Below, piece after piece: positions 41,587 through 64,000 of a DNA stretch of 64,000 nt; within the stretch, counting starts at the first letter, position 1, and the number at the start of each line of letters is the position of its first letter. Below the pieces are notes generated by a model. That model had not been told where the DNA came from. It did no database searches and saw nothing but the letters and a program-made list of their open reading frames with translations. Where the stretch lies: IMG/VR virus record IMGVR_UViG_3300044620_001243. One strand, given 5' to 3'. Both the position numbers and the translations under genes were made by a program. Source of the DNA: a virus.

Positions 41587-41725
41587 AGTCAGATGGCGAA
41601 ATGTAGCCGCTATTTGGGTAAAACAGTTTAACACGAGACGCGAACCTCACACAAAGCCTGATAATAACCAAATGAAAGTGCGAAGTACAGTAACACTTAT
41701 ACGGGTTCGACTCCCGTTCTGACTG
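41587..41725 (+). ncRNA. tRNA-Leu-like shell RNA 1 (divergent copy)
   Basis: AGTCAGA-TG-GCGAAATGTAGCCGC ... ACGGG-TTCGACT-CCCGT-TCTGACT-G; 90-nt insert with ATTTGG/CCAAAT stem around 51 nt, plus AAGTG/CACTT arm. Confidence 0.55.
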
Positions 41726-44439: not shown

Positions 44440-44604
44440 ATGCAACCAAAAGAATCAAAAACAAATACCCATTTTCAATTAAGTTTGATAAAATCTCTTT
44501 TAAGGATATTAGGATGTATTTATCTATTCTTTGGGTGTACAAGTATGTTTGTAATTATTTTCATATTTGCAGAAATTCTTGGAATTTTAGAAGAAATTTT
44601 GTAG
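44440..44604 (+). CDS. small membrane protein
   Basis: 54 aa from ATG 44440; C-terminal TM helices. Confidence 0.35.
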   Translation: MQPKESKTNTHFQLSLIKSLLRILGCIYLFFGCTSMFVIIFIFAEILGILEEIL

Positions 44605-44628
44605 TTTGAATTTTTTTTCGTATATTTG
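44598..44628 (+). promoter_or_regulatory. Bacteroidota-type promoter at the head of the RNA array
   Basis: TTTG, 19 nt, TATATTTG; tRNA-Met starts at 44654. Confidence 0.55.
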
Positions 44629-44653
44629 TATTCTGAATATGAAAATAAACAAT

Positions 44654-44727: not shown

Positions 44728-44791
44728 CCGTATAGTTTTTGTTCTTTGACATCTTGGGAATTAAAAGTAAAAGTCGAGAGACTTAAAAATT

Positions 44792-47216: not shown

Positions 47217-47319
47217 AGTCAGGTGGCGGAGTGGGCTAACGCTAACTTGGAAGAGTCTGAGGAGTGGTAACCAAGTACCTATACTCTGATGACCGCAGGT
47301 TCGAATCCTGTCCTGACTA
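47217..47319 (+). ncRNA. tRNA-Leu-like shell RNA 8
   Basis: AGTCAGG-TG-GCGGAGTGGGCTAACGC ... GCAGG-TTCGAAT-CCTGT-CCTGACT-A; 52-nt insert with ACTTGG/CCAAGT stem; loop AGAGT complementary to downstream ACTCT. Confidence 0.6.
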
Positions 47320-47337
47320 CAAAAATAAATTAAAATT

Positions 47338-47598
47338 ATGTTTATAGAAAGATTTTTTAACCCCTATGTGTCATCTCACGAAAGGGTATTATATGAGAAT
47401 AAAGAAGCAATTGAACATTGTTTGAAATATCATACATGGATTAGACATTATTCATTTGAAGGTGATGAATATATCAAAAATGTTAATGGTAAATTAGTTT
47501 GGAATGATGGTAGTAAAGTTGATAAAAGAAAATTACCTAAAAAAGGAAAAGGATGGGGCAGATATTCAAGTGAACTTTATAATTTGTGTTCTTTTTAA
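47338..47598 (+). CDS. hypothetical protein (cassette between tRNA-like elements)
   Basis: 86 aa ORF starting 18 nt after element 47217-47319 and ending 7 nt before element 47606. Confidence 0.5.
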   Translation: MFIERFFNPYVSSHERVLYENKEAIEHCLKYHTWIRHYSFEGDEYIKNVNGKLVWNDGSKVDKRKLPKKGKGWGRYSSELYNLCSF

Positions 47599-47605
47599 AT
47601 TAAAT

Positions 47606-47751
47606 AGTCAGGTGGCGGAATTGGTTAGACGCTGTAAAAGTAAGATATGGGAATTGTGCACTCGGTAAACCTACGCACAAGGCTTAGATAGTTGTGCAAC
47701 AGCGGAAAGTCTTACAAAACTATCTTACAGGTTCGAATCCTGTCCTGACTG
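47606..47751 (+). ncRNA. tRNA-Leu-like shell RNA 9
   Basis: Consensus ends (G73); 94-nt insert with AAGATA/TATCTT and TTGTGC/GCACAA stems. Confidence 0.55.
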
Positions 47752-47764
47752 CAAAATTAAAGAT

Positions 47765-47908
47765 ATGTTTAGAACATTAAATTATATTTGGAAATTGTTT
47801 TGGAAAAGACCTAGTAGAAGAGTATTTTTTATATTTTTTAGAATGCTAAAAACGGAAATTAAGTGTTTAATGTTGACTGGATACTCAACAGATGAATTAC
47901 TAAATTAG
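47765..47908 (+). CDS. hypothetical small protein (cassette between tRNA-like elements)
   Basis: 47-codon ORF found by eye; its TAG stop overlaps the first 2 nt of element 47907. Confidence 0.3.
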   Translation: MFRTLNYIWKLFWKRPSRRVFFIFFRMLKTEIKCLMLTGYSTDELLN

Positions 47909-48033
47909 TCAGGTGGCGGAATTGGTAGACGCACGATTTATTGTTTAACGATGTGGCTCAATGTCCTAATGGATGAGAGAAAATAAACAGAGAAATATAC
48001 CACATACAGGTTCGAATCCTGTCCTGACTACCA
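47907..48033 (+). ncRNA. tRNA-Leu-like shell RNA 10
   Basis: Consensus ends with encoded CCA; 73-nt insert with crossing complementarities TTTATT/AATAAA and ATGTGG/CCACAT. Confidence 0.6.
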
Positions 48034-48085
48034 AGTTAACCCACTAAGACTAGAAACGGGTGACACCTCGGAAAGACGAGGACAT

Positions 48086-48170: not shown

Positions 48171-48278
48171 CACAGTGTTGGCTTCAAGGACCTATTAGGG
48201 AAGTACACTTAAATAAAACAAGAACGGGGAAAACACCGAATCTGCAGATAACGGCGAAGTACCAACGAAAGGTGAAAC

Positions 48279-48352
48279 GACCTCATAGCTTAATTGGTAA
48301 AGCACCTGGCTTTTAACCAGGGGAGTCCAGAGTTCGAGTCTCGGTGGGGTCA
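48279..48352 (+). tRNA. tRNA-Lys (UUU)
   Basis: GACCTCA/TGGGGTC acceptor, D arm GCTT-AATTGGTA-AAGC, anticodon arm CCTGG-CTTTTAA-CCAGG, T loop TTCGAGT, A73. Confidence 0.8.
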
Positions 48353-48517
48353 CAAAGGTTGATTGGGGAATGATGGTGACAAAGACTTGAGAGTTTATGC
48401 CGGTCGTTACCATCGGAGTTGGGAGGTATAAACCTAAGCAATGCCAATCGTAAAAGGAGTTGTCCACTCGACCATCTTCTCCTTTCCTTTTTTTTAAAAA
48501 AATTCTTAAAGACACAT

Positions 48518-53524: not shown

Positions 53525-54256
53525 ATGGATAAAGATAAATTAAAAAATATCATTACCAGAATTGGTCAAATAAATCCAAAATATGAATTGGAAAATATTC
53601 TGCCTCAATCGCCAAAATTAATTAAATTAATGCCTAAATTAATTCAACTCATGGGTGACCCATTAGAAGATGCTCAATTGGCTGCAGTTAAAAAAGATGG
53701 TTTAACAATCGAATATATCGTTAAAGGTGGAATCACCCCATCAGAAGATGTTCAATTGGCTGCAGTTAACGAAAATGGTTATGCAATCCAATATATCATT
53801 AATGGTGGAATCGTCCCATCAGAAGGTGTTCAATTGGCTGCAGTTAACAAAAAGGGTTATGCAATCTCAAATATCATTAAAGGTGGAATCGTCCCATCAG
53901 AAGATGTTCAATTGGCCGCAGTTAACGAAGAGGGTTATGCAATAGGATATATCATTGATGGTGGAATCGTCCCATCAGAAGGTGTTCAATTGGCCGCAGT
54001 TAATAATAATGGTTATGCAATCCAACATATCATTAATGGTGGAATCGTTCCATCAGAAGGTGTTCAATTGGCCGCAGTTAACAAAAAGGGTTTATCAATC
54101 GAATATATCATTGATGCCGGAATCATTCCATCAGAAGATGTTCAATTTGGAGCAGTTAATTATAATGGTTTATCAATCCAATATATCATTGATGCTGGAA
54201 TCACCCCATCAGAACGTGTAAAAGAACTTGCTCGTTCCAAGGGTGTTCAAATATAA
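53525..54256 (+). CDS. DUF4116-like repeat protein, paralog 1 of 3
   Basis: Seven roughly 30-aa repeats GGI.PSEDVQLAAVN.NGYAIQYII; shared N- and C-termini with the next two genes. Confidence 0.6.
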   Translation: MDKDKLKNIITRIGQINPKYELENILPQSPKLIKLMPKLIQLMGDPLEDAQLAAVKKDGLTIEYIVKGGITPSEDVQLAAVNENGYAIQYIINGGIVPSEGVQLAAVNKKGYAISNIIKGGIVPSEDVQLAAVNEEGYAIGYIIDGGIVPSEGVQLAAVNNNGYAIQHIINGGIVPSEGVQLAAVNKKGLSIEYIIDAGIIPSEDVQFGAVNYNGLSIQYIIDAGITPSERVKELARSKGVQI

Positions 54257-54261
54257 ATAAC

Positions 54262-54897
54262 ATGGATAAAGATAAATTAAAAAATATCATTACCAGAATT
54301 GGTCAAATAAATCCAAAATATGAATTGGAAAATATTCTGCCCCAATCACCAAAATTAATTCAATTCATGGATAATCCATCAGAAGATGTTCAATTGGCCG
54401 CAGTTAAAAAAGATGGTTTAACAATCTATTATATCATTGAAGCCGGAATCGTCCCATCTGAAGATGTTCAATTGGCTGCAGTTAATAATAATGGTTCATC
54501 AATCTATCAAATCATATATGATGCTGGAATCACCCCATCAGAAGATGTTCAATTGGTTGCAGTTAAAAAAGTGGGCGACTTAATCTATGATATCATTAAA
54601 GTCGGAATAACCCCATCAGAAGATGTTCAATTGGCTGCGGTTAATAATAATGGTTCATCAATAGGATATATCATTAACGGTGGAATCACCCCATCAGAAG
54701 ATGTTCAATTGGCCGCTGCTAATCAAAATGGTAGGGTAATCCAATATATCATTAAAGCTGGAATCACCCCATCAGAAGATGTTCAATTGGCCGCAGTTAA
54801 TAATAATGGTTATGCAATCCAACATATCATTAACGCCCGAATCACCCCATCAGAACGTGTAAAAGAACTTGCTCGTTCCAAGGGTGTTAATATATAA
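54262..54897 (+). CDS. DUF4116-like repeat protein, paralog 2 of 3
   Basis: Same architecture; N-terminus MDKDKLKNIITRIGQINPKYELENI identical. Confidence 0.6.
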   Translation: MDKDKLKNIITRIGQINPKYELENILPQSPKLIQFMDNPSEDVQLAAVKKDGLTIYYIIEAGIVPSEDVQLAAVNNNGSSIYQIIYDAGITPSEDVQLVAVKKVGDLIYDIIKVGITPSEDVQLAAVNNNGSSIGYIINGGITPSEDVQLAAANQNGRVIQYIIKAGITPSEDVQLAAVNNNGYAIQHIINARITPSERVKELARSKGVNI

Positions 54898-54902
54898 GTT
54901 AT

Positions 54903-55616
54903 ATGGATAAAGATAAATTAAAAAATATCATTACCAGAATTGGTCAAATAAATCCAAAATATGAATTGGAAAATATTGTGCAGCAAGCGCCACAATTAAT
55001 TCAATTCATGGATAATCCATCTGAAGAAATTCAATTGGCCGCGGTTGAAAAAGATGGTAAATATATAAAAAATATTATTGAAAGTGGAATCAAACCATCA
55101 GAAGATGTTCAATGGACAGCTGTTAATCAAGGTGGTCAGTCACTTTATTTTATCCTTGAAGCCGGAATCGTCCCATCTGAAGATGTTCAGTTGGCAGCGG
55201 TTAGAAGTAGAGGTTCGGCAATCCAATTTATCATTGAAGCTGGAATCATTCCATCAGAAGATGTTCAATGGTTTGCGGTTAACGAAAATGGTTATGTAAT
55301 CCAAGATATCATTGATGCCGGAATCACCCCATCAGAACGTGTTCAATTGGCCACAGTTAATTATAATGGTTTGTTAATCAAATATATCATTGATGTCGGA
55401 ATCACCCCATCAGAACGTGTTCAATTGGCTGCTGTTAATCAAAATGGTTTGTCAATCAAAGATATCATTGAAGCCGGAATCGTCCCATCTGAAGATGTTC
55501 AGTTGACTGCAGTTAGAAGTAGAGGTTCGGCAATCCAATTTATCATTTATAATGGTGGAATCAAACCATCAGAACGTGTAAAAGAACTTGCTCGTTCCAA
55601 GGGTATTAATATATAA
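54903..55616 (+). CDS. DUF4116-like repeat protein, paralog 3 of 3
   Basis: Same architecture; C-terminus PSERVKELARSKG.NI shared. Confidence 0.6.
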   Translation: MDKDKLKNIITRIGQINPKYELENIVQQAPQLIQFMDNPSEEIQLAAVEKDGKYIKNIIESGIKPSEDVQWTAVNQGGQSLYFILEAGIVPSEDVQLAAVRSRGSAIQFIIEAGIIPSEDVQWFAVNENGYVIQDIIDAGITPSERVQLATVNYNGLLIKYIIDVGITPSERVQLAAVNQNGLSIKDIIEAGIVPSEDVQLTAVRSRGSAIQFIIYNGGIKPSERVKELARSKGINI

Positions 55617-55621: not shown

Positions 55622-56194
55622 ATGGAAAAAAATCTAAATGAAGAGATTTCAAGAATAAAATCAATAATCAATTTTATGAATGAAAATGAATTGCCCAAAA
55701 ATTCTGGAGACTTAATAAGGATGTTACCTGAAAAGTTAAAAGAATTATTTTTCAATCAATGGAAAGCAAAACAAAACCCAAAATGGCACCCCGAAGGTAA
55801 CACATTGAAACATATTCTTGTTGTAATTAAAAGGGCTTATCATTATTATCCTGATGACCCCAATATGATTATGGCGGCGTTGTTTCATGATTTGGGGAAA
55901 ATTGATACATACAACATTAACCCAAAAACGGGGGAACCAACTGCGTATGGTCATGAGAACAAGTCAGTGCAATATGTGGAAGAATTCAAAGATTGGATTC
56001 AGAGTTTTGAGGGAACGAACGTGGAAGAGATTAAATATTTGGTTAAAAACCATATGAAGGTAAAACCATCCACATGGGACTCAATGAGGGATATTAAGAA
56101 AGAACCGATACAATCACACCCCGCATTTGATAAATTAATGGGTTTTACAAGTAAATTGGATGGTGGGGGGATTAATTTGGAAAAAAATATTTAA
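55622..56194 (+). CDS. HD-domain phosphohydrolase (CCA-enzyme HD-domain-like)
   Basis: NPKWHPEGNTLKH and LFHDLGK (H...HD) resemble the HD domain of bacterial CCA-adding enzymes. Confidence 0.6.
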   Translation: MEKNLNEEISRIKSIINFMNENELPKNSGDLIRMLPEKLKELFFNQWKAKQNPKWHPEGNTLKHILVVIKRAYHYYPDDPNMIMAALFHDLGKIDTYNINPKTGEPTAYGHENKSVQYVEEFKDWIQSFEGTNVEEIKYLVKNHMKVKPSTWDSMRDIKKEPIQSHPAFDKLMGFTSKLDGGGINLEKNI

Positions 56195-56211
56195 ACAAAA
56201 AAGTTAATTTT

Positions 56212-56243
56212 TTTGGAAGTATGGTATCTTTTACTTATCTTTG
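56212..56243 (+). promoter_or_regulatory. Bacteroidota-type promoter
   Basis: TTTG, 20 nt, TATCTTTG. Confidence 0.5.
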
Positions 56244-56249
56244 TAGAAG

Positions 56250-56369
56250 ATGAAAACAAATCTATTCATGGAAATATTAATTTATATTGGGTTTATCTTG
56301 TGGTTTTTTGCGGGATATAATATGGGTGTGTGTGACCAAAGAATGAAAAATTTATTTAAAAATAAATAA
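56250..56369 (+). CDS. hypothetical small membrane protein
   Basis: 39-codon ORF found by eye, downstream of promoter 56212-56243. Confidence 0.3.
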   Translation: MKTNLFMEILIYIGFILWFFAGYNMGVCDQRMKNLFKNK

Positions 56370-56376
56370 ATCCAAA

Positions 56377-56631
56377 ATGGGAACCGAAGTAAAATTGTTT
56401 GTCAAATACAATGAAATTGACGGTAGGTCATATTTTGATTTAAGTGTTGGTGATGGTAATAAAGACATATCTTTACGTGATATTCGTGCAATATTAACTG
56501 GTGCCGTTGCTATGACCATTAGATTATCTGAAAATGATGTCGAGGCAATGACAGAGGTTATAAACTTATTGAATGAACAATTTGTGAGTCCTCATGCATT
56601 CGAAGATGGTAAATTAAAAAAAATAATATGA
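56377..56631 (+). CDS. hypothetical protein
   Basis: 84 aa ORF. Confidence 0.45.
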   Translation: MGTEVKLFVKYNEIDGRSYFDLSVGDGNKDISLRDIRAILTGAVAMTIRLSENDVEAMTEVINLLNEQFVSPHAFEDGKLKKII

Positions 56632-56819
56632 TATTACTTAGACAACAAAAAGTATTGGTGACTGGTGATGAATACGCCGGCGATATTCAGAACAAGATTG
56701 ACAAAATCTTGGAAGATGGTTGGTTCATTGTATCTGTAACAGCACAACACATATCAACAGGTAGTAGTAGTTATCTAAGAGGAGGTTATCTCATCGTGTT
56801 TGAAAGAACCATTAGTTAA
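56628..56819 (+). CDS. hypothetical protein
   Basis: 63 aa ORF, ATGA overlap. Confidence 0.4.
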   Translation: MILLRQQKVLVTGDEYAGDIQNKIDKILEDGWFIVSVTAQHISTGSSSYLRGGYLIVFERTIS

Positions 56820-56830
56820 ATCCAAAACCG

Positions 56831-57448
56831 ATGCAAAAAGTTATTTTCTTGGATATTGATGGGGTAATGAACTCACATATTTTCTATGAACAAAGGCATA
56901 GAAAAAGATGGTTGAAATGGAGAACTTATTATTTTTTGATTAGAAGATTTTTGGGGATTAAATCCAAATCCGTGAGTCTTGCTAACCACAAAACACCCAA
57001 ATCCCATTGCACATACCAACACCAATTTAAAAGATTAAAAGAAGAGACTTGTCAGCAAAAATGGAAATGGCTTGCTAATTTCTGCAACGAGACTGGAACT
57101 AAAATTTGTGTATCATCTGTGTGGAGATTTCATTTTGGAAATGAAGAATCGGTTATACCCCTGTGGTGGGAACGAGCACTGATTGATTTGGGTTTCAACG
57201 AAGGAACATTTGTTGGTATCACCGACAGATTGGGAATGAGAGGAGAAGAAATCAAGGATTGGCTTCAAAAAAATCAGGAAGTTCAGGAATATGCAATTTT
57301 AGATGATGACTCTGATATGCTACCTGAACAGATGGATAAATTTTATCATTGTGATGGATATTTTGGTCTTTCTCCCAATCACTTATATCGTATCCAAAGA
57401 GCCTTCTCGGGTAAAAGTAAATATGGACATTTGAATAAAACCGTATAA
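56831..57448 (+). CDS. HAD-like phosphatase (recalls the HAD domains of 'Swiss-army-knife' RNA-repair proteins)
   Basis: VIFLDIDGVMNS motif I; ILDDDSD motif near the C-terminus. Confidence 0.45.
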   Translation: MQKVIFLDIDGVMNSHIFYEQRHRKRWLKWRTYYFLIRRFLGIKSKSVSLANHKTPKSHCTYQHQFKRLKEETCQQKWKWLANFCNETGTKICVSSVWRFHFGNEESVIPLWWERALIDLGFNEGTFVGITDRLGMRGEEIKDWLQKNQEVQEYAILDDDSDMLPEQMDKFYHCDGYFGLSPNHLYRIQRAFSGKSKYGHLNKTV

Positions 57449-57467: not shown

Positions 57468-58595
57468 ATGAGACACGAAAAATTGATTGAAAAACATTTA
57501 GGTATTAACACACCTGATTGGGTTAAAGAAAAAGTAAATAATGCCATAGATGAAGCACTTGGTTATAATTTGAAAAAATCTGAAGAACTCACACCATACA
57601 TTGAATACTACTCCAACGGAAATGTACTTGTCAAAGGACAAAAGAACTCCAAAGGACAAGAAGAAGGTCTTTGGGAGTGGTTCTATAAAAACGGAAACAT
57701 CCGTATGAGAATCCCATACAAAGAGGGTAAGGAAGATGGAATTGAGGAGGTTTTCTATGAAAACGGAAACATCAGTATGAGAATCCCATACAAGGAGGGT
57801 AAGATGGATGGAATTCGGGAGTGGTTTGATAAACAATGGAACATCAAAGCAAGAATCCCATTCAAAGAGGGTAAGGAGGATGGAATTGCGGAGTGGTTTG
57901 ATGAACAGGGAAACATCACCGAAACCCGTGTATGTAAAAATGGTGAAGTAATTGAAATAACTAAACCCGAACTCACACCCCACATCGAATACTACTCCAA
58001 CGGGAACGTAAGGGTCAAAGGACAAAGGAATTCCAAAGGACAACGAGAAGGTATTTGGGAGTGGTTTTTTGAGAACGGAAACATCCTATGTAGAACCCCG
58101 TACAAAGAGGGTAATATGGATGGTATTGAGGAGTTGTTCTATGAAAACGGAAACACCAAATGGAGAATCCCATACAAAAATGGCGTGGAGGATGGAGTTC
58201 AGGAGTGTTTTGATGAACAGGGAAACATCACCGCGACCAGTCATTGGAAAGATGGTGAAGTAATTGAAGAAACTAAACCCGAACTCACACCCCACATTGA
58301 ATACTACCCCAACGGAAATGTATGGTTCAAAGGTCAAAAGAACTCCAAAGGACAACGAGAGGGGATTTGGGAGATTTTTTGGATGAACGGAAACATCGAA
58401 TGGAGAACTTCTTACAAAGAGGGTAAGGAGGATGGTATTGATGAGGGGTTCTATTCAGACGGAAACATCCGTTGTAGAACCCCATACAAAGAGGGTAAGG
58501 AGGATGGAATTGAGGAGCGGTTTGATGAACAAGGAAACATCACCGAAACCCGTCATTGGAAAGACGGGGAAATAATTGAAGAAACTAAACACTAA
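57468..58595 (+). CDS. MORN/YwqK-type repeat protein
   Basis: 375 aa; about 12 tandem roughly 23-aa repeats in three blocks, each starting ELTP.IEYY.NGN. Confidence 0.7.
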   Translation: MRHEKLIEKHLGINTPDWVKEKVNNAIDEALGYNLKKSEELTPYIEYYSNGNVLVKGQKNSKGQEEGLWEWFYKNGNIRMRIPYKEGKEDGIEEVFYENGNISMRIPYKEGKMDGIREWFDKQWNIKARIPFKEGKEDGIAEWFDEQGNITETRVCKNGEVIEITKPELTPHIEYYSNGNVRVKGQRNSKGQREGIWEWFFENGNILCRTPYKEGNMDGIEELFYENGNTKWRIPYKNGVEDGVQECFDEQGNITATSHWKDGEVIEETKPELTPHIEYYPNGNVWFKGQKNSKGQREGIWEIFWMNGNIEWRTSYKEGKEDGIDEGFYSDGNIRCRTPYKEGKEDGIEERFDEQGNITETRHWKDGEIIEETKH

Positions 58596-58598
58596 ACT

Positions 58599-59222
58599 AT
58601 GACACACAACATCATTAAAACAGACAACTATCTTTTTATTGGTTCTGATGATGACATTAGAAGAGGATTGTTTTATTGTGTAAGAAGGAAAAATATTTTC
58701 CAAGATGAGGGTGAAGATATTCATTGTTGTATGGGAGATATCAGAATTATGGCCCACTTACCACTCAACAACTCACCTGTTCTTGAAGGTATAGACTTAT
58801 TACCCGCTTTAGAGGATGGTGTTGAGAAGTTGGCTGAGGAATTTAAAAGTTCATATAAAAAAGTTGGAGTTACTGATTATGAGGTTTCATCATTTATTGT
58901 AGGCTACAACAAAGCCAAAGAGAAGTACAAGTACACAGAAGAAGATTTGAGAGAAGCTTTATTTGAAGTATTAAATACATCAAAAGAAGAATGTTGTGCA
59001 ACTCATACGAAAGATAGTATTGTTCGTAGAGTAATCAAATCCCTCCAACAACCAAAGATACCTGATGCTTTTGAGTGTGAGATGGTAACTATGAACAAAG
59101 GTTATACTGAAGAATCTGACTATCCGTATCAACAGTGTGATATACCAAAAATCACAACCAACTCACAAGGTCTCACGCAGTGGGTTGGTAGCTATATCTT
59201 TAAAACCAAAAATCAAAACTAA
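58599..59222 (+). CDS. hypothetical protein
   Basis: 207 aa ORF. Confidence 0.5.
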   Translation: MTHNIIKTDNYLFIGSDDDIRRGLFYCVRRKNIFQDEGEDIHCCMGDIRIMAHLPLNNSPVLEGIDLLPALEDGVEKLAEEFKSSYKKVGVTDYEVSSFIVGYNKAKEKYKYTEEDLREALFEVLNTSKEECCATHTKDSIVRRVIKSLQQPKIPDAFECEMVTMNKGYTEESDYPYQQCDIPKITTNSQGLTQWVGSYIFKTKNQN

Positions 59223-59232
59223 ATTAAAAATT

Positions 59233-59427
59233 ATGCAAAATTTAATCTCAACCGAATTATACGAAGTAACCGAAAAACTTTACAGAGATATGAACCCAAA
59301 TGGCAGGATGTCAGAACCACCGAGTAGTGTCTATGTTACTGTTATTGAAAAGTGGTATCCCGAATACCGGCAATCAAATTCCGAATTGAGTTTCTACGAA
59401 TGGTGTAAAAAAAATAAAAGTAATTAA
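59233..59427 (+). CDS. hypothetical protein
   Basis: 64 aa from ATG 59233 (track ORF 59137 overlaps upstream gene). Confidence 0.4.
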   Translation: MQNLISTELYEVTEKLYRDMNPNGRMSEPPSSVYVTVIEKWYPEYRQSNSELSFYEWCKKNKSN

Positions 59428-59429
59428 AT

Positions 59430-59549
59430 ATGATAGGACTTATTATTTTCGGATTGTTGATTTTTTGGATTATTATAACGGAAGGAAATATTTTTCTTCG
59501 CGATAATGACGATGATTGGGACGGAACAAATCAAAGTATAGATTTGTGA
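59430..59549 (+). CDS. hypothetical small membrane protein
   Basis: 39-codon ORF found by eye (MIGLIIFGLLIFWIIIT...). Confidence 0.3.
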   Translation: MIGLIIFGLLIFWIIITEGNIFLRDNDDDWDGTNQSIDL

Positions 59550-59590
59550 TTATTTTCAAAAATAATTTTTTTTTTTGAACTTGTAGTTAG

Positions 59591-59598
59591 TATATTTA
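59591..59598 (+). promoter_or_regulatory. -7 box TATATTTA
   Basis: 22 nt upstream of ATG 59621. Confidence 0.4.
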
Positions 59599-59620
59599 CA
59601 CCATCAAATCAAGATTAAAA

Positions 59621-59875
59621 ATGTACGAAGCAAAATACGTAATCGTTGAAGGGAGTGGAATCATCTTTTCCGCAGCAATCCAACACAAAGACATGGTTGG
59701 TTATAATGAAAAATGCGAAGGTGCTGGGTTCGTAAGGTTTGCCGTTGAAAAAGATAGCTACGGCGATGACATCATCGTTGCCCAATGCTACGGCGAGTCC
59801 ATTTCATTGGGTATCGAATCTCGACCAGAAAAAGATTCAAAAATTCTAACGCGTCAAATCACCAATCCTTTTTGA
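59621..59875 (+). CDS. hypothetical protein
   Basis: 84 aa ORF downstream of the -7 box at 59591-59598. Confidence 0.5.
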   Translation: MYEAKYVIVEGSGIIFSAAIQHKDMVGYNEKCEGAGFVRFAVEKDSYGDDIIVAQCYGESISLGIESRPEKDSKILTRQITNPF

Positions 59876-59901
59876 ATGTAAAACTAAAAAATATTAAAAC
59901 G

Positions 59902-60105
59902 ATGATAACAATTTCAACTCTATTCATTTTGCTGTACTCATACAGTCTGTATAAAATTAGAAAAGACTCTGGGTCTTGGAAAGAATTCGACCCATTTGGG
60001 AGTAGTCTATTTGTCTCGTTGGTATTCATATTCGGTACATCAGCAATCATAGTATGTGTGTTAGGAATTCTAGGTTATGTGGTACAAAATAATTTAATAC
60101 CCTAA
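59902..60105 (+). CDS. small membrane protein
   Basis: 67 aa from ATG 59902; two TM helices. Confidence 0.4.
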   Translation: MITISTLFILLYSYSLYKIRKDSGSWKEFDPFGSSLFVSLVFIFGTSAIIVCVLGILGYVVQNNLIP

Positions 60106-60117
60106 ATAATACAAAAC

Positions 60118-60225
60118 ATGAAAAAAGAAAAAACATATTTTGATGGAATTATAGTAGGGTTTGGTATAACTTTTATACTTTATTCAATCTTGTTAGGTTA
60201 TATCATTTCAATCTTAACACCATAA
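60118..60225 (+). CDS. hypothetical small membrane protein
   Basis: 35-codon ORF found by eye. Confidence 0.25.
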   Translation: MKKEKTYFDGIIVGFGITFILYSILLGYIISILTP

Positions 60226-60239
60226 AACTCTTCAACCAC

Positions 60240-60947
60240 ATGTACGTAGTATACGCAAAGAATGATTTCACTCTTTTAGGAAAAGAGTATTTCGGTACTG
60301 ACGAAAAAAGTATCATCGGCTTTCATGACCCAGTTAGAGCTTCTCACTTTGAATCTGTTGAAGCGGCAGAAGAGTTCTGTAAACTTTTTGACTATCCAGA
60401 TAGAAAGATAGAACCTCTGTCAAAACACATAAAGCTTTTTCAAAAGTGCACTTATGTTTACAGAAAGATTGATAAGCTAGATGACTGTATAAACATCAAG
60501 TATGATGAGAAAAAGCACGATGCTCTCGCAGTTCTTGATTGGAGAATGAAACATGCTAAAGAACCAGAAAGAGCGGTTGCTTATGAGAACTATCGAACTT
60601 GGCCAGATTTGTATTCTGTATTTACATACTTATTCAAACTCACTAGATACTACTCAAGAGATTACAAATCCCTGTTCTATTCGGTTCAGTTAAAGACTCC
60701 AAAGAACGGAAACTACGAGGCTTTTTACAAGGAATTCGCACTCGTTCTTGACTATTGTACTTTTGTAGATGAGGATGGCAGAAAGGTATTTGACATTATA
60801 GACCTCGAACTTTGTGAATATGAAAGAAGAAGATTATGTTTCGGTGGAGAAGATGATTGCACCATTTCAAATGGTAGGCGCGACATCTTCAAGGGAACTC
60901 TGAAAGAGTGTTTTGAGGAAATGAGAAAAGACTTTTGGTATAACTGA
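60240..60947 (+). CDS. hypothetical protein
   Basis: 235 aa ORF, less AT-rich than surroundings. Confidence 0.55.
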   Translation: MYVVYAKNDFTLLGKEYFGTDEKSIIGFHDPVRASHFESVEAAEEFCKLFDYPDRKIEPLSKHIKLFQKCTYVYRKIDKLDDCINIKYDEKKHDALAVLDWRMKHAKEPERAVAYENYRTWPDLYSVFTYLFKLTRYYSRDYKSLFYSVQLKTPKNGNYEAFYKEFALVLDYCTFVDEDGRKVFDIIDLELCEYERRRLCFGGEDDCTISNGRRDIFKGTLKECFEEMRKDFWYN

Positions 60948-60965
60948 TATTCCAAGAAATCTTTA

Positions 60966-60992
60966 CCCAGATTTGAATCCTATCTTGACAAC
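60966..60992 (+). other. decayed 3' half of a shell element
   Basis: CCAGATTTGAATCCTATCTTGACAAC versus consensus ACAGGTTCGAATCCTGTCCTGACTAC; followed by the shared cassette leader. Confidence 0.5.
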
Positions 60993-61015
60993 AAAAAAAA
61001 CAAAAAACAAAACAA

Positions 61016-61222
61016 ATGAAAAACAAAGTTTGGAACAAAACAGTTATTGCAACTGAAGAACAAAACGTAAGCATTTATCCGACAGATGAGTTTGATGGCA
61101 TTATAGTTGAAACAAAAGAGTTGGACGATAAAACATTAAATGGTAAGTTGTATCTTAACAAAGATGAAATGGAACTGTTGATTCAGAAAATGGTGGAAAT
61201 GATGAATTACGTAAAAAGTTAA
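61016..61222 (+). CDS. hypothetical protein (cassette after a decayed tRNA-like 3' half)
   Basis: 68 aa; leader AACAAAACAAATGAAA shared with other cassettes. Confidence 0.45.
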   Translation: MKNKVWNKTVIATEEQNVSIYPTDEFDGIIVETKELDDKTLNGKLYLNKDEMELLIQKMVEMMNYVKS

Positions 61223-61237
61223 TCGAATCCTGACTGC
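61223..61237 (+). other. truncated 3' half of a shell element
   Basis: TCGAATCCTGACTGC equals the consensus T-loop/acceptor with an internal 5-nt deletion; followed by the shared leader. Confidence 0.45.
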
Positions 61238-61264
61238 AAATCAAATCAACTAAAAACAAAACAA

Positions 61265-61405
61265 ATGAAAAATAAGTTAAAAACAATTTGGCATGATTTT
61301 TGGACTGACCCCCTATACTACATTGTAATTATGTCGTATATTGGTTTGCTTTTAATTATGTTAATAGTTAGTGTGGCTTGGTTTATCCAACCTTTAATAA
61401 AATAA
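61265..61405 (+). CDS. hypothetical small membrane protein (cassette)
   Basis: 46-codon ORF found by eye; same leader; stop 6 nt before the tRNA-Leu at 61412. Confidence 0.35.
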   Translation: MKNKLKTIWHDFWTDPLYYIVIMSYIGLLLIMLIVSVAWFIQPLIK

Positions 61406-61411
61406 CAAAAC

Positions 61412-61501
61412 AGTCAGGTGGTGGAATTGGTTAGACCGTCCCCTCCCTTAAGTGGAAGGGGGAGACCGAAAGGTATACAGGTTCGAATCCTGTCCTGACT
61501 A
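61412..61501 (+). tRNA. tRNA-Leu (UAA), type II; the most intact member of the AGTCAGG shell family
   Basis: Family acceptor and T arms; anticodon arm CCTCC-CTTAAGT-GGAAG (one C/A mismatch; U33, UAA, G37); variable arm ACC-GAAA-GGT. Confidence 0.5.
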
Positions 61502-61518
61502 CTAAAAATTAAAGAATT

Positions 61519-61680
61519 ATGAAAATAAAAGTACACTTATTAAGTCAATCTAAACCGATTGAATATGAGGATGTGAAAAACGCATACACAAAAAGCGGTT
61601 TGTATTGTGTCTATCTAAAAAACAATCAAGTACACAAATACCCTTTGTGTAATGTATTTAGAATTGAAGAAGATTATTAA
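61519..61680 (+). CDS. hypothetical small protein (cassette)
   Basis: 53-codon ORF found by eye between elements 61412-61501 and 61686-61768. Confidence 0.35.
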   Translation: MKIKVHLLSQSKPIEYEDVKNAYTKSGLYCVYLKNNQVHKYPLCNVFRIEEDY

Positions 61681-61685
61681 AACAT

Positions 61686-61768
61686 AGTCAGGTGGCGAAA
61701 TTGGATAGACGCTAGGGAAACCTTCCCGAGAATGAAAGTTCATATAGGTTCGAGTCCTGTCCTGACAA
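61686..61768 (+). ncRNA. tRNA-Leu-like shell RNA 13 (tRNA-sized)
   Basis: 83 nt; A1/A72 mismatch (CCTGACA); centre folds as GGGAA-ACC-TTCCC, not a 7-nt anticodon loop. Confidence 0.5.
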
Positions 61769-61784
61769 CTAAAAATTAAAGAAT

Positions 61785-61967
61785 ATGGAATGGGTTGAAA
61801 TTAAAAATGGAAAACCAAAAGATGGTAGTTGGGTACTAATTCAAAGTTCTTTGAAGAACGTACCGAAATATGAGGTTTGCTATTATGAAAATGATGAATG
61901 GTACATACCTTCGTATAATGATGTATGTGAAGAGAAACATATTATTAAATGGTCGTACATTGAATAA
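61785..61967 (+). CDS. hypothetical protein (cassette)
   Basis: 60 aa ORF between elements 61686 and 61974. Confidence 0.45.
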   Translation: MEWVEIKNGKPKDGSWVLIQSSLKNVPKYEVCYYENDEWYIPSYNDVCEEKHIIKWSYIE

Positions 61968-61973
61968 TCAAAC

Positions 61974-62096
61974 AGTCAGGTGGCGGAATTGGTAGACGTA
62001 TAGAGTAGGGAGTAGCACTCCATTTATGGTAAGGCAAGCAAATAAGACCTAACCCTCTAAGGTAGCACCATACAGGTTCGAATCCTGTCCTGACTA
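61974..62096 (+). ncRNA. tRNA-Leu-like shell RNA 14
   Basis: Consensus ends; 72-nt insert with TAGAG/CTCTA closing stem and GGAG-TAGCA-CTCC hairpin. Confidence 0.6.
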
Positions 62097-62115
62097 CAAA
62101 CAAACAAAAAAAAAT

Positions 62116-62322
62116 ATGAGTCAATTTATCAACACAAATCACGCAAACGAAGCGGCAAGAGAAGCCTTTCAGGGTTATAGGAAAGACACAGAAAGAATCA
62201 AACAAATCAGACAGATGTTACAGAATGGTGAATCTGTTAGCAATGAAGATATTCTTTGGTTGTGTCAAAGAGCTCAATCAGGCATACTACAAGAAGAATC
62301 AAGTTGGTATGACCACGGATAA
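62116..62322 (+). CDS. hypothetical protein (cassette)
   Basis: 68 aa ORF between elements 61974 and 62329. Confidence 0.45.
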   Translation: MSQFINTNHANEAAREAFQGYRKDTERIKQIRQMLQNGESVSNEDILWLCQRAQSGILQEESSWYDHG

Positions 62323-62328
62323 AAATAT

Positions 62329-62435
62329 AGTCAGGTGGCGGAATTGGTAGACGCAATAAGGCATGGAAACATGCGCATCATGACGGATTGGTGATATTAG
62401 CCAAAGTTATACAGGTTCGAATCCTGTCCTGACTA
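62329..62435 (+). ncRNA. tRNA-Leu-like shell RNA 15
   Basis: Consensus ends; 56-nt insert with ATAA/TTAT closing stem, GCATG-GAAA-CATGC (GNRA tetraloop) and TTGG/CCAA hairpins. Confidence 0.6.
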
Positions 62436-62454
62436 CAATAAAAAAACAAAACAA

Positions 62455-62943
62455 ATGAAACTAAATCAAAACTCACTCTCGGCAAAACTCTATCGTTGGT
62501 TCTATAAAACCGACACAATGCCAACCAACCTATGTCCTTACTTTTGGAAACTGGTCACTGCGGTGATTCTTTCACCTTTGCTTGCAATTCACACCCTACC
62601 CTATGAAATCATCAACTACAAACGTCAGCGTTGGGATACATACAGTGATATGCTCGGAATATCGCTTGTTTGTTGGTGCCTTATCGCTGTTGTTATTTGC
62701 ATGATTTCATCATTGGGTCTTTTCTTTTACATCCCTGATAAGGGTTCATCACTTTGGACAATGATGTCAATCGGTCTTATTTGTTGGGGTACCCTTATCC
62801 TAGTTGGCATTACTTGGGCTATTACTAAAACAGTAGTATACTTAAAATCAAAGAAGAGTGATAATGAAAAGACAGACAACATCATCGTTGAAATGGTGAA
62901 AGCAAAGTATCACAAATACTGCCCTAAAATTGATTGGAAGTAA
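62455..62943 (+). CDS. membrane protein (cassette)
   Basis: 162 aa with about 4 TM helices, between elements 62329 and 62951. Confidence 0.55.
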   Translation: MKLNQNSLSAKLYRWFYKTDTMPTNLCPYFWKLVTAVILSPLLAIHTLPYEIINYKRQRWDTYSDMLGISLVCWCLIAVVICMISSLGLFFYIPDKGSSLWTMMSIGLICWGTLILVGITWAITKTVVYLKSKKSDNEKTDNIIVEMVKAKYHKYCPKIDWK

Positions 62944-62950
62944 AACAAAT

Positions 62951-63028
62951 AGTCAGGTGGCGGAATGGTAACGCAGCTCGCGGTGTACACAAAGGGGTGA
63001 ATTGCAGGTTCGAATCCTGTCCTGACTA
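62951..63028 (+). ncRNA. tRNA-Leu-like shell RNA 16 (shortest)
   Basis: 78 nt; 29-nt centre tested at every register for a 5-7-5 arm, none found. Confidence 0.5.
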
Positions 63029-63047
63029 CAATAAAAAAACAAAACAA

Positions 63048-63320
63048 ATGAAAAGACTATTTTTATTTCTTCTCAGAAGATACAGCAACACTGAATCACA
63101 ACGAATGGAAATTTACCGTGAGTTGTGGGAAAAAACCAAAGAGGAATATTGGGCACAAACCGCATTTGGAAATGTCTACAATATGAATATTGAGGTTCTA
63201 ATGGCAAATCCATTTTTCGAAAGTAGAGTTAAGTTAGGAGAGGATGAACATTTAAGAATGTTAAAAGCTGGACTATCAGATTCATTTGACGATAGTGTTG
63301 AATATATCCTGAATGGTTGA
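63048..63320 (+). CDS. hypothetical protein (cassette)
   Basis: 90 aa from ATG 63048; the track ORF start at 62934 reads through the tRNA-like element and is rejected. Confidence 0.45.
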   Translation: MKRLFLFLLRRYSNTESQRMEIYRELWEKTKEEYWAQTAFGNVYNMNIEVLMANPFFESRVKLGEDEHLRMLKAGLSDSFDDSVEYILNG

Positions 63321-63374
63321 AAAAATTAATTTACTGTTTCTCTAAATTTAAAAATATGTCAGATTTCAAAGGTA

Positions 63375-63424
63375 GTAAATTTTTCTTTGGAGATTCGGAA
63401 AATCAAAATTTATTACTTATATTT
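63375..63424 (+). repeat. 50-nt promoter-bearing repeat, copy 1
   Basis: GTAAATTTTTCTTTGGAGATTCGGAAAATCAAAATTTATTACTTATATTT. Confidence 0.7.
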
Positions 63425-63425
63425 A
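63418..63425 (+). promoter_or_regulatory. -7 box TATATTTA inside the 50-nt repeat
   Basis: 24 nt upstream of ATG 63450. Confidence 0.45.
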
Positions 63426-63449
63426 GGCCATAATTAAACAAAAAATAAG

Positions 63450-63638
63450 ATGGAAAAACAATTGAATATATCTGATGATAGAAGTAGTAAAATTATATAC
63501 ACAGTTGTACCTTACTTTTCAAATGGATATGAAGTAAATCAAAATGATGTAAAATCTTTCACTGATTTTAAAAAAGCGGAAGAATATACATGGACATTAA
63601 ACTGTCATTTTGATGTGATTGAAAATGAACTTATATAA
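63450..63638 (+). CDS. hypothetical protein
   Basis: 62 aa ORF downstream of repeated promoter module. Confidence 0.45.
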   Translation: MEKQLNISDDRSSKIIYTVVPYFSNGYEVNQNDVKSFTDFKKAEEYTWTLNCHFDVIENELI

Positions 63639-63687
63639 TTTTATTTCATATAACGTCCGCACTTGATTTGAAATTAATTTTAAAACT

Positions 63688-63885
63688 ATGAACGGAAGAA
63701 AATTATACAGAGAGTATGCTCAAAGTAAAGGTAAAGAAGCAAAGGAATTTGTAAAAATAGAAGAAGATTGGTACAACCAAGACACATTAATTACGAAAGA
63801 TAACAAAGGTAATGAAGAACGAACAAGTATTAATTACAAAGACCTTGTGAACTGGATTATACGTACCGTACCCAATGGTGCGTAA
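63688..63885 (+). CDS. hypothetical protein
   Basis: 65 aa ORF. Confidence 0.45.
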   Translation: MNGRKLYREYAQSKGKEAKEFVKIEEDWYNQDTLITKDNKGNEERTSINYKDLVNWIIRTVPNGA

Positions 63886-63903
63886 CGTCCACAAATATGA
63901 GTG

Positions 63904-63953
63904 GTAAATTTTTCTTTGGAGATTCGGAAAATCAAAATTTATTACTTATATTT
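63904..63953 (+). repeat. 50-nt promoter-bearing repeat, copy 2
   Basis: Identical 50-mer; a partial relative (GGAAAATCAAAATTTACTTCGTATATTTA) lies at 38384-38412. Confidence 0.7.
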
Positions 63954-63954
63954 G
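63947..63954 (+). promoter_or_regulatory. -7 box TATATTTG inside the 50-nt repeat
   Basis: Second copy of the promoter module near the window end. Confidence 0.45.
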
Positions 63955-64000
63955 CTGTTAGAAATAGTTAGACATAATTGTTTCTAACGGTTGGGTATAT

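Follow-up and report, generated by a model that had tools for sequence, protein, structure and literature searches.

Nucleotides 60966 to 63320 of the window, the 64,000-nt stretch of viral DNA analyzed here, probably form a hyperplastic region of accessory genes in a large phage that uses Bacteroidota-type promoters. Our favored explanation is that promoterless ORFs are packed there between tRNA-Leu-derived RNA genes, which would act jointly as junctions for DNA exchange and as presumed sites of RNA processing. The region holds seven small ORFs, all on the + strand, each with an element 5' to it, of which five are intact and two are truncated 3' remnants. These elements belong to a phage-specific, tRNA-Leu-derived family in which a near-invariant acceptor/D/T shell encloses an unrelated variable core; we call them shell elements. 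All of them share the orientation of the ORFs, and the tRNA-shaped units directly abut ORFs on the same strand. The features of the array and of related sites in the window are given below, with related viral loci designated by L numbers.

41587..41725, + strand: divergent shell element flanked by ORFs 41421-41579 and 41738-41911; its acceptor and T stems show compensatory changes
44598..44640, + strand: Bacteroidota-type promoter motif TTTG-N-TAnnTTTG, just 5' of tRNA-Met and the 44.6-48.4 kb tRNA/shell array
47217..48030, + strand: second alternating stretch (element 47217-47319, ORF 47338-47598, element 47606-47751, ORF 47765-47908, element 47907-48030); L009 and L184 have the same element or ORF with other partners
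60966..60992, + strand: truncated, decayed shell 3' half (T arm and acceptor 3' strand) matching the 3' consensus at 20/27 positions by hand count, the changes being mostly G:C to A:T
61016..61222, + strand: ORF of 68 aa, a portable small gene (homologs at 72-97% aa); it is bracketed by two intact elements in L022, follows an intact element and precedes a remnant in L121 and L127, and has no adjacent element in L111 and L036
61223..61237, + strand: truncated 3' part of a shell, running from the T loop to the acceptor 3' strand with an internal deletion of 5 nt, directly 3' of the stop codon
61265..61405, + strand: ORF of 46 aa, with a possibly membrane-spanning hydrophobic segment, that fills 80% of its interval (5/2000 shuffles); a homolog at 45% aa lies behind a similar remnant in L126
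61412..61501, + strand: shell element 1, with a tRNA-Leu(UAA)-like anticodon loop, CUUAAGU, on an over-long stem (ARAGORN Leu(taa); Rfam tRNA 33.5 bits); its core is also present in the 51-53% GC contigs L059, L065 and L093
61519..61680, + strand: ORF of 53 aa, phrog_10299 (full-length PHROG match, E = 5e-28), with 65% identity to a small ORF of KVP40-like vibriophages that overlaps or adjoins the annotated dexA/exonuclease gene
61686..61768, + strand: shell element 2, with matching shell and a short core lacking a credible anticodon arm (Rfam tRNA 25.5 bits, below the gathering score); a 98% identical copy occurs in L123
61785..61967, + strand: ORF of 60 aa, with 97-100% aa identity in L122-L126
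61974..62096, + strand: shell element 3, with perfect shell halves and a 71-nt core, whose length explains the absence of an Rfam call
62116..62322, + strand: ORF of 68 aa filling 88% of its interval (1/2000 shuffles); no relatives were found in viral contigs
62329..62435, + strand: shell element 4 (Rfam tRNA 40.3 bits)
62455..62943, + strand: ORF of 162 aa, membrane protein phrog_944, with 49 related viral loci; shell elements lie near only those relatives that are 77-83% identical, and upstream neighbors differ among these
62951..63028, + strand: shell element 5, with the shortest core (Rfam tRNA 46.7 bits)
63048..63320, + strand: ORF of 90 aa, last gene of the block, with homologs at 81-84% aa; that in L184 lies behind its own TAnnTTTG promoter-like spacer, and that in L185 in a locus without shell elements

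The upstream ORF, 60240-60947, had no relatives in viral contigs. In the array, stop-to-element gaps are 5-7 nt (ORF end/element start 61405/61412, 61680/61686, 61967/61974, 62322/62329 and 62943/62951; 6, 5, 6, 6 and 7 nt) and element-to-ATG gaps are 16-19 nt (discriminator/next ATG 61501/61519, 61768/61785, 62096/62116, 62435/62455 and 63028/63048; 17, 16, 19, 19 and 19 nt). These junctions had been proposed in a sequence-only reading of the window, and all proved correct on recheck, as did the secondary sites at 41579/41587, 41725/41738, 47319/47338, 47598/47606 and 47751/47765 and the overlap of the TAG at 47906-47908 with an element starting at 47907. The common leader ascribed to four cassettes, AACAAAACAAATGAAA, is present in exactly four copies, at 61006, 61255, 62445 and 63038, a number reached in 0/100 shuffles (mean 0.13, maximum 1). 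A single + strand ORF fills 80-94% of every inter-element interval, and at most 5 of 2000 shuffles get there. Strict alternation of elements and ORFs, also claimed from sequence, holds locally in 60966-63320 but not in the 44.6-48.4 kb array, where mostly non-coding spacers separate the elements. The same phage has an RNA-repair gene set and an anti-Thoeris gene.

The shell element family

All five intact array elements, and 16/16 elements of the window, have the cloverleaf features of the shell: the acceptor stem has 7 bp, the D arm carries G18G19, and the T-arm loop is TPsiC. Shell base pairs are retained in 97-100% of 188 unique elements, and variants are mostly G-U or compensatory. The Rfam tRNA model RF00005 scored three of the five array elements at 46.7, 40.3 and 33.5 bits and one, below gathering, at 25.5 bits; one gave no match. 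None of them has an anticodon arm of standard form, 5 bp of stem and a 7-nt loop presenting an anticodon. Only element 61412 has a tRNA-Leu-like loop, whose stem is over-long and mismatched; in the remaining elements the core is an unrelated hairpin, 18-145 nt in length, and ARAGORN isotype calls for the elements are scattered or undetermined. Most elements are without an anticodon arm and are not decoding tRNAs. The shell does retain A73 and the D-loop and T-loop features required by LeuRS; for the A. aeolicus enzyme, deletion of the anticodon arm lowers affinity just 2.5-fold (PMC2377443).

At least 120 viral contigs, with GC contents of 26-53%, carry the shell, in up to 16 copies per 64 kb. 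A search of 185,579 species genomes with a shell 25-mer gave 14 matches, all in MAG contigs with non-canonical elements; the 25-mer was absent from cellular tRNA genes, and an origin as host tRNA or att-site was rejected on this ground. The compared loci also contain 225 unique canonical tRNAs, whose acceptor stems are nearly all different from one another, and genuine tRNA-Leu(UAA) genes coexist with shells. The array and its neighboring operon had no blastn match among GenBank phages, and no description of the shell-element family was found in Rfam or the literature searched. Within about 1.5 Mb of related loci, cores match only other elements, and a spacer-like origin of cores was rejected. 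Searches of cores against Rfam down to E = 1 returned only tRNA and one sub-threshold PreQ1 match that is probably due to chance. Cores show compensatory changes. No signal of within-genome concerted evolution was detected among shells (2.28 mismatches within versus 1.86 between loci; permutation p = 0.92), in a test weakened by ascertainment of the elements through the exact 25-mer. Shell conservation is far above the needs of processing, so some other constraint or spreading mechanism must act.

Exchange of ORFs and cores among related phages

When the array was compared with its relatives, all of which are metagenome assemblies, ORFs and cores were found to reassort independently. The sequence-only reading had suggested that the elements might be handles for homologous recombination and had called for a synteny comparison; the reshuffling of ORF-element pairs, with one ORF flanked by different cores in different phages, supports that suggestion. 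Whole cassettes are present or absent among relatives, with junctions in shell halves or common leaders. For example, L121 and L127 join window position 61270 straight to 62443 at the shared leader, L123 parallels the window up to 62005, just past the D arm of element 61974, and then has another core, and L122 carries window 59410-59891 inserted behind an element. ORF 61785 is associated with two different upstream and three different downstream cores, and in L122-L126 the cores on both sides differ from those in the window. Pairing with different cores across loci was seen for 7 of 10 downstream and 6 of 9 upstream ORF families. Contigs of about 52% GC share a fixed locus where the flanks are 88-95% identical and the cores cannot be aligned. 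Overall, 30 of 36 endpoints of homology blocks fall in the constant shell and leader segments, which make up 22.6% of the arrays (p = 2e-14), although endpoints at conserved/variable boundaries are partly expected by construction. The independent reassortment of ORFs and cores led us to reject a partnership of cores with specific neighboring ORFs, of the toxin-antitoxin or partner-protein kind.

Perfect repeats of 49 and 138 nt extend across shell halves in the window; for instance, the 3' half of element 4 and the adjoining leader (62412-62460) are 100% identical to 63005-63053. Assembly chimeras are a remaining caveat, but are unlikely to be behind the mosaicism because repeats in the 60.9-63.4 kb array are no longer than 49 nt and one common arrangement was obtained from three separate metagenomes (L123, L124 and L125). 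As far as assembled sequences can tell, these comparisons support shell and leader sequences as junctions for modular genome shuffling. At the DNA level, near-identical shell halves and shared A-rich leaders give perfect tracts of 25-49 nt at which related phages have exchanged, gained or lost ORFs and cores, most simply by homologous recombination or gene conversion; sequence-conserved repeats with perfect tracts of up to 49 nt fit the former. The analogy to attC sites, raised alongside, found no such backing: the repeats are conserved in sequence, no integrase was detected among the scanned ORFs of the window, and junctions occur in the leader and in either half of the shell instead of at one crossover point. 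Among the ORFs scanned in the 64-kb window, which included all of at least 250 aa, no integrase or recombinase Pfam domain was detected.

The eroded 3' halves described ahead of the ATGs at 61016 and 61265 are indeed truncated shell 3' parts, and we regard them as scars of deletions that took the 5' part. They had been assigned to older junctions, but for 60966 this is unsupported; L121 and L127 have an intact element at the homologous site, and the truncation postdates the split from them. At the position of 61223-61237, L127 has the undeleted form TCGAATCCTGTCCTGACTG. The remnant at 60966-60992 contains TTTG and TATCTTG, but a promoter born there was rejected, as the spacing is wrong.

Transcription and proposed RNA processing

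The flanks of the shells show U at -1 (80%), A at -2 (70%), A at -4 (72%), A73 (94%) and C74 (98%), and canonical tRNA genes in these loci exhibit the same pattern (A-4, A-2, U-1; A73, C74). The elbow, and not the anticodon arm, is the reference point from which RNase P, RNase Z and the CCA-adding enzyme measure (PMC4919913). Bipartite Bacteroidota promoter motifs were found upstream of arrays, and one lies at 41370, 5' to ORF 41421; none was found within 60.9-63.4 kb, and the nearest upstream is at 56212. Leaders of 16-19 nt leave no room for a promoter, neither a terminator nor a promoter motif of sigma-70 or Bacteroidota type occurs in shell plus leader, and sigma-70-type promoter-like and terminator-like sites are not enriched. 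Given tRNA-type flanks and no promoter motif in the array, co-transcription of ORFs and elements followed by RNase P and 3' processing is likely on sequence grounds. Promoterless ORFs and elements would be transcribed together as a polycistron, from which RNase P and the 3' tRNA-processing pathway would excise the elements, cutting beside the ORFs; excision is to be expected because the elements retain the tRNA elbow, the acceptor stem and the flanking signals of genuine tRNAs. The proposal that the elements work as tRNA punctuation thus appears plausible.

The geometry of the junctions recurs across the family. Among 214 element contexts, stop-to-element gaps peak at 5-7 nt, with none at 0-2 or 20-29 nt, and a TAG stop overlaps the element at 11 junctions, that at 47908 included; element-to-ATG gaps peak at 13-19 nt and are hardly ever below 11 nt. 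Unconserved spacing had been named as a finding that would count against the sequence-only reading, and conservation is what was found. The fixed spacing may represent room taken by flanking processing signals: positions -5 to -1 would constitute a conserved RNase P-type leader, so that stop codons lie 5-7 nt upstream or share U-1 as TAG, and at least 12 nt of unstructured A-rich leader would be required ahead of the next ATG. Tight spacing is also a product of simple genome compaction. At the 11 tight junctions the TAG spans -1 to +2, and cleavage by RNase P would there yield a non-stop mRNA; translation must therefore at least partly use unprocessed RNA. ORFs 61016 and 61265 retain the same leader though they lie behind truncated elements, which cannot serve as RNase P substrates. 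Homologs of ORFs 61016, 61519, 62455 and 63048 exist without an adjacent element, so punctuation is not required for their expression.

Alternative explanations and comparable systems

An ordinary tRNA cluster with small ORFs, of the T4, T5 or KVP40 type, might present a similar picture if compaction had set the spacing and the elements were mere repeats. The many canonical tRNAs in the same loci, the element-free occurrence of ORFs elsewhere, the lack of strict alternation at 44.6-48.4 kb and the persistence of ORFs behind truncated elements agree with such incidental packing. We nevertheless think it unlikely, since most elements are non-decoding and without an anticodon arm, the shell is near-invariant over contigs of 26-53% GC while real tRNAs of the same loci diverge freely, mosaic junctions cluster in shell and leader segments, and the gap distributions are sharply bounded, with no smooth decay.

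A site-specific cassette system, akin to integrons or tRNA-gene integration, would involve a dedicated recombinase recognizing the T-loop and acceptor 3' part, with circular ORF cassettes being inserted and each leaving a duplicated 3' half downstream. It is suggested by the recurrence of 3'-only remnants, usually starting in or beside the T-loop GAATCC (L035, L036 twice, L062, L121 and window 61223), by the rarity of convincing 5'-only remnants, and by ORFs situated between an upstream intact element and a downstream 3' remnant with the same leader (L121, L127 and L035). Such a system seems to us very unlikely: the scanned ORFs of the 64-kb window encode no integrase or recombinase domain, junctions also occur in the 5' half and leaders, and the remnants, too few for statistics, include one (L036 4568-4597) that is a plain internal collapse from the D-loop GGAAT to the T-loop GAATCC and so points to microhomology deletion. 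It is most improbable that the elements are selfish or mobile units whose cores spread by gene conversion into resident shells of co-infecting phages, with the ORFs as bystanders. Core replacement between flanks of 88-95% identity, the presence of one core beside different ORFs, identical shells in unrelated genomic backgrounds and the lack of within-locus homogenization would all fit. However, the same junctions also gain and lose ORF cassettes; the unit swapped at the fixed locus includes the D arm, so that just about 10 nt of constant sequence remain for homology on the 5' side; and compensatory changes in cores suggest useful RNAs rather than pure parasites. The selfish-element proposal overlaps with our preferred explanation and does not exclude it.

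The preferred explanation, in which shell elements serve both exchange and processing, has its closest parallel in the PeSLs (promoter-early stem-loops), mobile regulatory cassettes of T4-type phages (Arbiol et al. 2010, PMC2839356; Comeau et al. 2014, PMC4122927). Both are short conserved non-coding repeats between small non-essential ORFs of hyperplastic regions, and in both, close relatives differ by insertions, deletions and replacements with junctions in the repeats, for which homologous recombination is proposed; here too, intergenic repeats flank small accessory ORFs and recombination junctions lie within them. A PeSL, however, consists of a strong early promoter and a terminator stem-loop, whereas the present repeat has neither motif and is a tRNA-shaped RNA gene with a variable insert that is itself exchanged. 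Integron attC arrays likewise have co-oriented promoterless small ORFs, structured repeats between them and a cassette content that varies among relatives. They differ from the array in that no IntI-type integrase is present among the scanned ORFs of the window, and in that attC sites are conserved in structure and recombine as a folded single strand at a fixed point, whereas the repeats here are tRNA-shaped and sequence-conserved, with dispersed junctions.

On the RNA side, polycistronic transcripts of animal mitochondria are punctuated by tRNAs, and the T4 tRNA cluster, like the E. coli tRNA-tufB operon, yields tRNA-mRNA co-transcripts; the acceptor/T-arm stack is what RNase P and RNase Z recognize. 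As in these systems, tRNA-shaped units lie a few nt from ORFs on one strand, with no promoters between. In contrast to them, the elements are mostly non-decoding, the ORFs also work element-free, cleavage is predicted, and there is no polyadenylation to mend stop codons cut by RNase P. Gammaherpesvirus MHV68 encodes tRNA-miRNA TMERs, which are tRNA-like processing handles. The mascRNA of MALAT1 is another such handle (e.g. PMC11693755). In both, as proposed here, a non-decoding tRNA-like fold is the RNase P/RNase Z signal that sets the ends of adjacent RNAs, but they are eukaryotic, present in single or few copies, take no part in DNA recombination and lack a variable core family. Engineered tRNA scaffolds and polycistronic tRNA-gRNA arrays keep a constant acceptor/D/T frame in which cargo RNA takes the place of the anticodon arm, and in the arrays host tRNA processing frees the units. 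Those constructs are man-made; shell RNAs would be their natural counterpart, and none of this kind was found for phages in Rfam 15 or the literature searched.

More tentatively, the tRNA-Leu shell might be a standard cassette interface of unrelated phage lineages, acting on the DNA and RNA levels together; this is possible, but we hold it with clearly less confidence than the explanation given above for the array. On the DNA side, any shell-framed core or shell-flanked ORF could recombine into any shell-bearing genome, in an integron-like exchange without an integrase. On the RNA side, the shell would be a natural tRNA scaffold from which dozens of structured RNAs are excised and stabilized by host enzymes, which possibly also add CCA tails or leucylate them. 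The swapped cores could then be a diversifying arsenal, e.g. decoys or inhibitors in conflict over host tRNA and RNA, and shell RNAs might constitute a new effector RNA class in phages. Phage genomes are mosaic, and the sequences that join their modules are rarely visible; here they are explicit, as one 7-bp acceptor stem plus T arm. If the model is true, it provides a testable case of linker-mediated modular exchange outside the T4-type phages, in which DNA crossover and RNA cut sites would be specified by one and the same element, tying recombination to RNA processing. The comparison brings to light, besides, a large family of tRNA-Leu-like RNAs that do not decode and whose structured cores are swapped fast; in viral annotation these RNAs give rise to false tRNA calls.

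Organization of the array and of the shell element family

The region from 60.9 to 63.4 kb was checked by reading nucleotides 60600-64000, with the ORF list and with pattern searches. The sequence-only reading had described a strict alternation of small ORFs and shell elements (tRNA-shaped RNA genes with a constant acceptor/D/T shell around a variable core), and this was recovered as seven + strand ORFs and five intact elements, in which stop codons lie 5-7 nt before an element and ATG codons 16-19 nt after a discriminator.

ORFs (from the ORF list and sequence reading; named by first nucleotide) and intact shell elements (from pattern searches) of the array
61016-61222, + strand, ORF
61265-61405, + strand, ORF
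61412-61501, + strand, intact shell element
61519-61680, + strand, ORF
61686-61768, + strand, intact shell element
61785-61967, + strand, ORF
61974-62096, + strand, intact shell element
62116-62322, + strand, ORF
62329-62435, + strand, intact shell element
62455-62943, + strand, ORF
62951-63028, + strand, intact shell element
63048-63320, + strand, ORF

A single + strand ORF covers 80-94% of every interval between elements, a coverage equalled in at most 5 of 2000 shuffles. The leader said to be common to four cassettes, AACAAAACAAATGAAA, was indeed found in four copies, and none of 100 shuffles had four matches. The 3' half of the element together with the leader forms a perfect 49-nt repeat (62412-62460 and 63005-63053). 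There are 16 shell elements in the window, all on the + strand, and only three canonical tRNAs (Met, Glu and Lys).

The elements form a phage-specific family resembling tRNA-Leu and have the layout AGTCAGG-TGGCGGAAT(T)GGTAGACGC-[core]-ACAGGTTCGAATCCTGT-CCTGACT-A, folded as a cloverleaf shell around one to three unrelated hairpins. Their only Rfam match is 'tRNA', with a score that derives from the shell, and no description of the family was found in Rfam 15 or in the literature searched. Lengths range from 68 to about 310 nt, and clustering of the cores of the 188 unique elements gives 160 groups. Shell base pairs are intact in 97-100% of these elements, the variants being mainly G-U or compensatory; judged by the compensatory changes found in core stems of recurrent core families, the cores too look like constrained RNAs. 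At least 120 viral contigs contain an exact 25-mer of the shell 3' half. A search of 185,579 species genomes found it only 14 times, in all 14 cases on MAG contigs with non-canonical elements of the same type (taxonomic labels tending to Chitinophagaceae and Bacteroidota), and copying of the shell from a host tRNA was thus ruled out. The GC content of shell-bearing contigs varies between 26% and 53%, and among canonical tRNAs of one isoacceptor in the same loci distinct acceptor stems are nearly as numerous as the genes. The shell is thus kept constant, or is spreading horizontally, well past the needs of a tRNA fold. Genuine tRNA-Leu(UAA) genes are present alongside shells in the same loci. 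Since the shell keeps A73 and the D-loop and T-loop features needed by LeuRS, and the anticodon arm is mostly dispensable for leucylation (PMC2377443), leucine charging of shell RNAs is a possibility.

Exchange of ORFs and cores among related loci

Comparison with related viral contigs from metagenomes (L-numbers) upheld the suggestion that ORFs and elements are exchanged between relatives. In L121 and L127, alignment to the window shows 60968-61270 fused straight to 62443-62962 at the shared leader, the intervening stretch with its four ORFs and four elements being absent. L123, L124 and L125 are 98% identical to the window over 61680-62005, past which they switch to the core found at window 44993; a lipoprotein ORF and then the 162-aa membrane ORF (ORF62455) come next. 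In L122, window 59410-59891 comes right after an element, and L009 and L184 behave likewise in the 45-48 kb array. ORF61785 has two different cores upstream and three downstream; over all loci, different cores in different loci were seen for 7 of 10 ORF families downstream of elements and for 6 of 9 upstream. At a fixed locus between 49-aa and 215-aa ORFs in contigs of about 52% GC (L065 6895, L090 11345, L099 4006, L110 4365, L093 4390 and, on the - strand, L044 4303), the same shell has five unrelated cores, depending on the contig, between flanks that are 88-95% identical. Among them is a tRNA-Leu(UAA)-like core that recurs at window 61412, in a genome of 32% GC. Within the window arrays, 30 of 36 distinct homology-block endpoints fall in the constant segments, whose share of the arrays is 22.6% (binomial p = 2e-14).

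Two truncated elements lie at the beginning of the array, and relatives identify both as the eroded 3' halves that they had been taken for.

Truncated elements of the array
60966-60992, decayed T arm and acceptor 3' strand; intact at the homologous site in L121 and L127
61223-61237, 3' remnant that follows the ORF61016 stop directly and starts within the T loop; L127 retains the undeleted 19 nt

The first has drifted chiefly by G:C to A:T changes and, as L121 and L127 are intact there, this scar postdates the split from them. Comparable 3'-only remnants, starting at or near GAATCC, occur in L035, L036, L062 and L126, and convincing 5'-only remnants are rare. A collapsed element at L036 4568-4597 (AATCAGGTGGGGGAAT|CCTGTCCTGACTA) has D-loop GGAAT joined to T-loop GAATCC with the entire core gone; the ORF that follows keeps a normal leader.

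The elements had been proposed as recombination handles in the manner of attC sites. The handle part of this proposal stands, in that the mosaic patterns observed are those expected from homologous recombination or gene conversion between short tracts of identity; the same homologous-recombination mechanism has been described for the promoter-early stem-loop (PeSL) cassettes of T4-type phages (PMC2839356). The likeness to attC sites did not hold: the layout is similar to that of integrons, but the repeats here are conserved in sequence, the junctions are dispersed, and no integrase was found among the window ORFs scanned. Site-specific recombination at the shells is an alternative that draws its main support from the asymmetry of the remnants, recurrently 3'-only and rarely 5'-only. 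PeSL-mediated modular shuffling is the closest known system, with the difference that here a tRNA-shaped RNA gene, without promoter or terminator, serves as the linker and has its own insert swapped as well.

The ORFs of the array are ordinary portable small genes. ORF61519 (53 aa; phrog_10299) matches Sinorhizobium phages and is 65% identical to a small ORF of KVP40-like T4-type vibriophages that overlaps or adjoins the annotated dexA/exonuclease gene; thus the same small gene is found in very distant phage lineages. ORF62455 (phrog_944) has relatives at 49 viral loci, and shell elements are near only the seven closest (77-83% amino acid identity). Homologs of ORF61016 have an intact element on either side in L022, lie behind one intact element in L121 and L127, and in L111 and L036 have no element and a promoter-like region upstream. 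The ORF63048 homolog has its own promoter-like spacer in front in L184 and overlaps the preceding ORF in L185, at a locus without elements. The elements are thus dispensable for expression of these genes.

Spacing, transcription and predicted processing

The spacing is shared by the whole family, as gap statistics from 214 element contexts show. The stop-to-element gap has its maximum at 5-7 nt (30 cases) and no gaps of 0-2 or 20-29 nt were seen in these contexts; in 11 cases, at 47908 and ten other junctions, a TAG stop is made of U-1, A+1 and G+2. The element-to-ATG gap has its maximum at 13-19 nt and is hardly ever below 11 nt. On the 5' flank, shells have U at -1 in 80% (C in 16%), A at -2 in 70% and A at -4 in 72%, and on the 3' flank A73 in 94% and C74 in 98%, then an A-rich run; canonical tRNA genes of the same loci have T at -1 in 69%, A at -2 in 63%, A at -4 in 62%, and C74 in 91%, then AAA. 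Thus, stop codons pile up directly 5' to a conserved 5-nt leader box, and an unstructured A-rich leader of at least 12 nt is retained before start codons.

The bipartite Bacteroidota-type promoter motif, TTTG-N17-23-TAnnTTTG, is found upstream of ORF 41421, at 44598, where it directly precedes tRNA-Met and opens the 44.6-48.4 kb array, and again at 48871 and 56212. The 60.9-63.4 kb region contains no copy of it and shows no enrichment of sigma-70-type promoter-like or terminator-like sites. The tRNA elbow is the point from which RNase P, RNase Z and the CCA-adding enzyme measure, along the T-arm/acceptor stack (PMC4919913). As this stack is whole in the shell elements, we infer on good grounds that ORFs and elements are co-transcribed, with tRNA-type excision. 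RNase P cleavage would destroy the TAG stops that span -1 to +2, and ORFs persist behind truncated elements. Processing at the elements is likely, but is probably a side effect of the layout, tolerated or exploited by the phage; translation is unlikely to depend on it. On the RNA side, mitochondrial punctuation, MALAT1 mascRNA and the MHV68 TMERs offer functional analogies.

Other features of the window

The region 44600-48400 is nearly free of ORFs and by eye GC-richer, with tRNA-Met, ten shell elements, tRNA-Glu, tRNA-Lys and long structured-looking spacers. Two perfect copies of a 138-nt unit (3' half, 95-nt spacer, 5' half) lie here between different cores, at 44871-45008 and 45339-45476. 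Additional T-arm-like motifs (GGTTCGAATCC) at 45680-45712 and 46905-46940 have other 3' ends (...CATATTAGTCAAC, ...AACAGAATGGAC) and are candidates for tRNA-like elements missed by the shell pattern, their acceptor stem being different or degenerate. Just past the 60.9-63.4 kb array, a promoter-like intergenic repeat of about 70 nt (GTAGTAAATTTTTCTTTGGAGATTCGGAAAATCAAAATTTATTACTTATATTT(G)) occurs at 63372-63447 and 63883-63954, the second copy terminating in TAnnTTTG, and also in L123 at 2091-2186; it is possibly an ordinary PeSL-like linker.

Comparison of 31800-40300 and 57500-63000 to L122 and L126 reveals large-scale rearrangement between close relatives; in L122 a block homologous to 57.5-63 kb sits between regions homologous to 34.2 kb and 34.7 kb. 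An RNA-repair-type gene set at 32068-33363, 34726-35783 and 55622-57448 includes a T4 Rnl1-like RNA ligase, a metallophosphoesterase beside an AAA_33 kinase (a Pnkp-like pair), an HD-domain protein and a protein with the HAD_SAK_2 'Swiss Army Knife RNA repair' domain, which suggests that conflict over cleavage of tRNA or RNA is important for this phage. The ORF at 8527-9099 matches Tad3, a type I Thoeris inhibitor (E = 6e-38), and DUF4116 repeats are found in three tandem paralogous ORFs (243, 211 and 237 aa) at 53525-55616.
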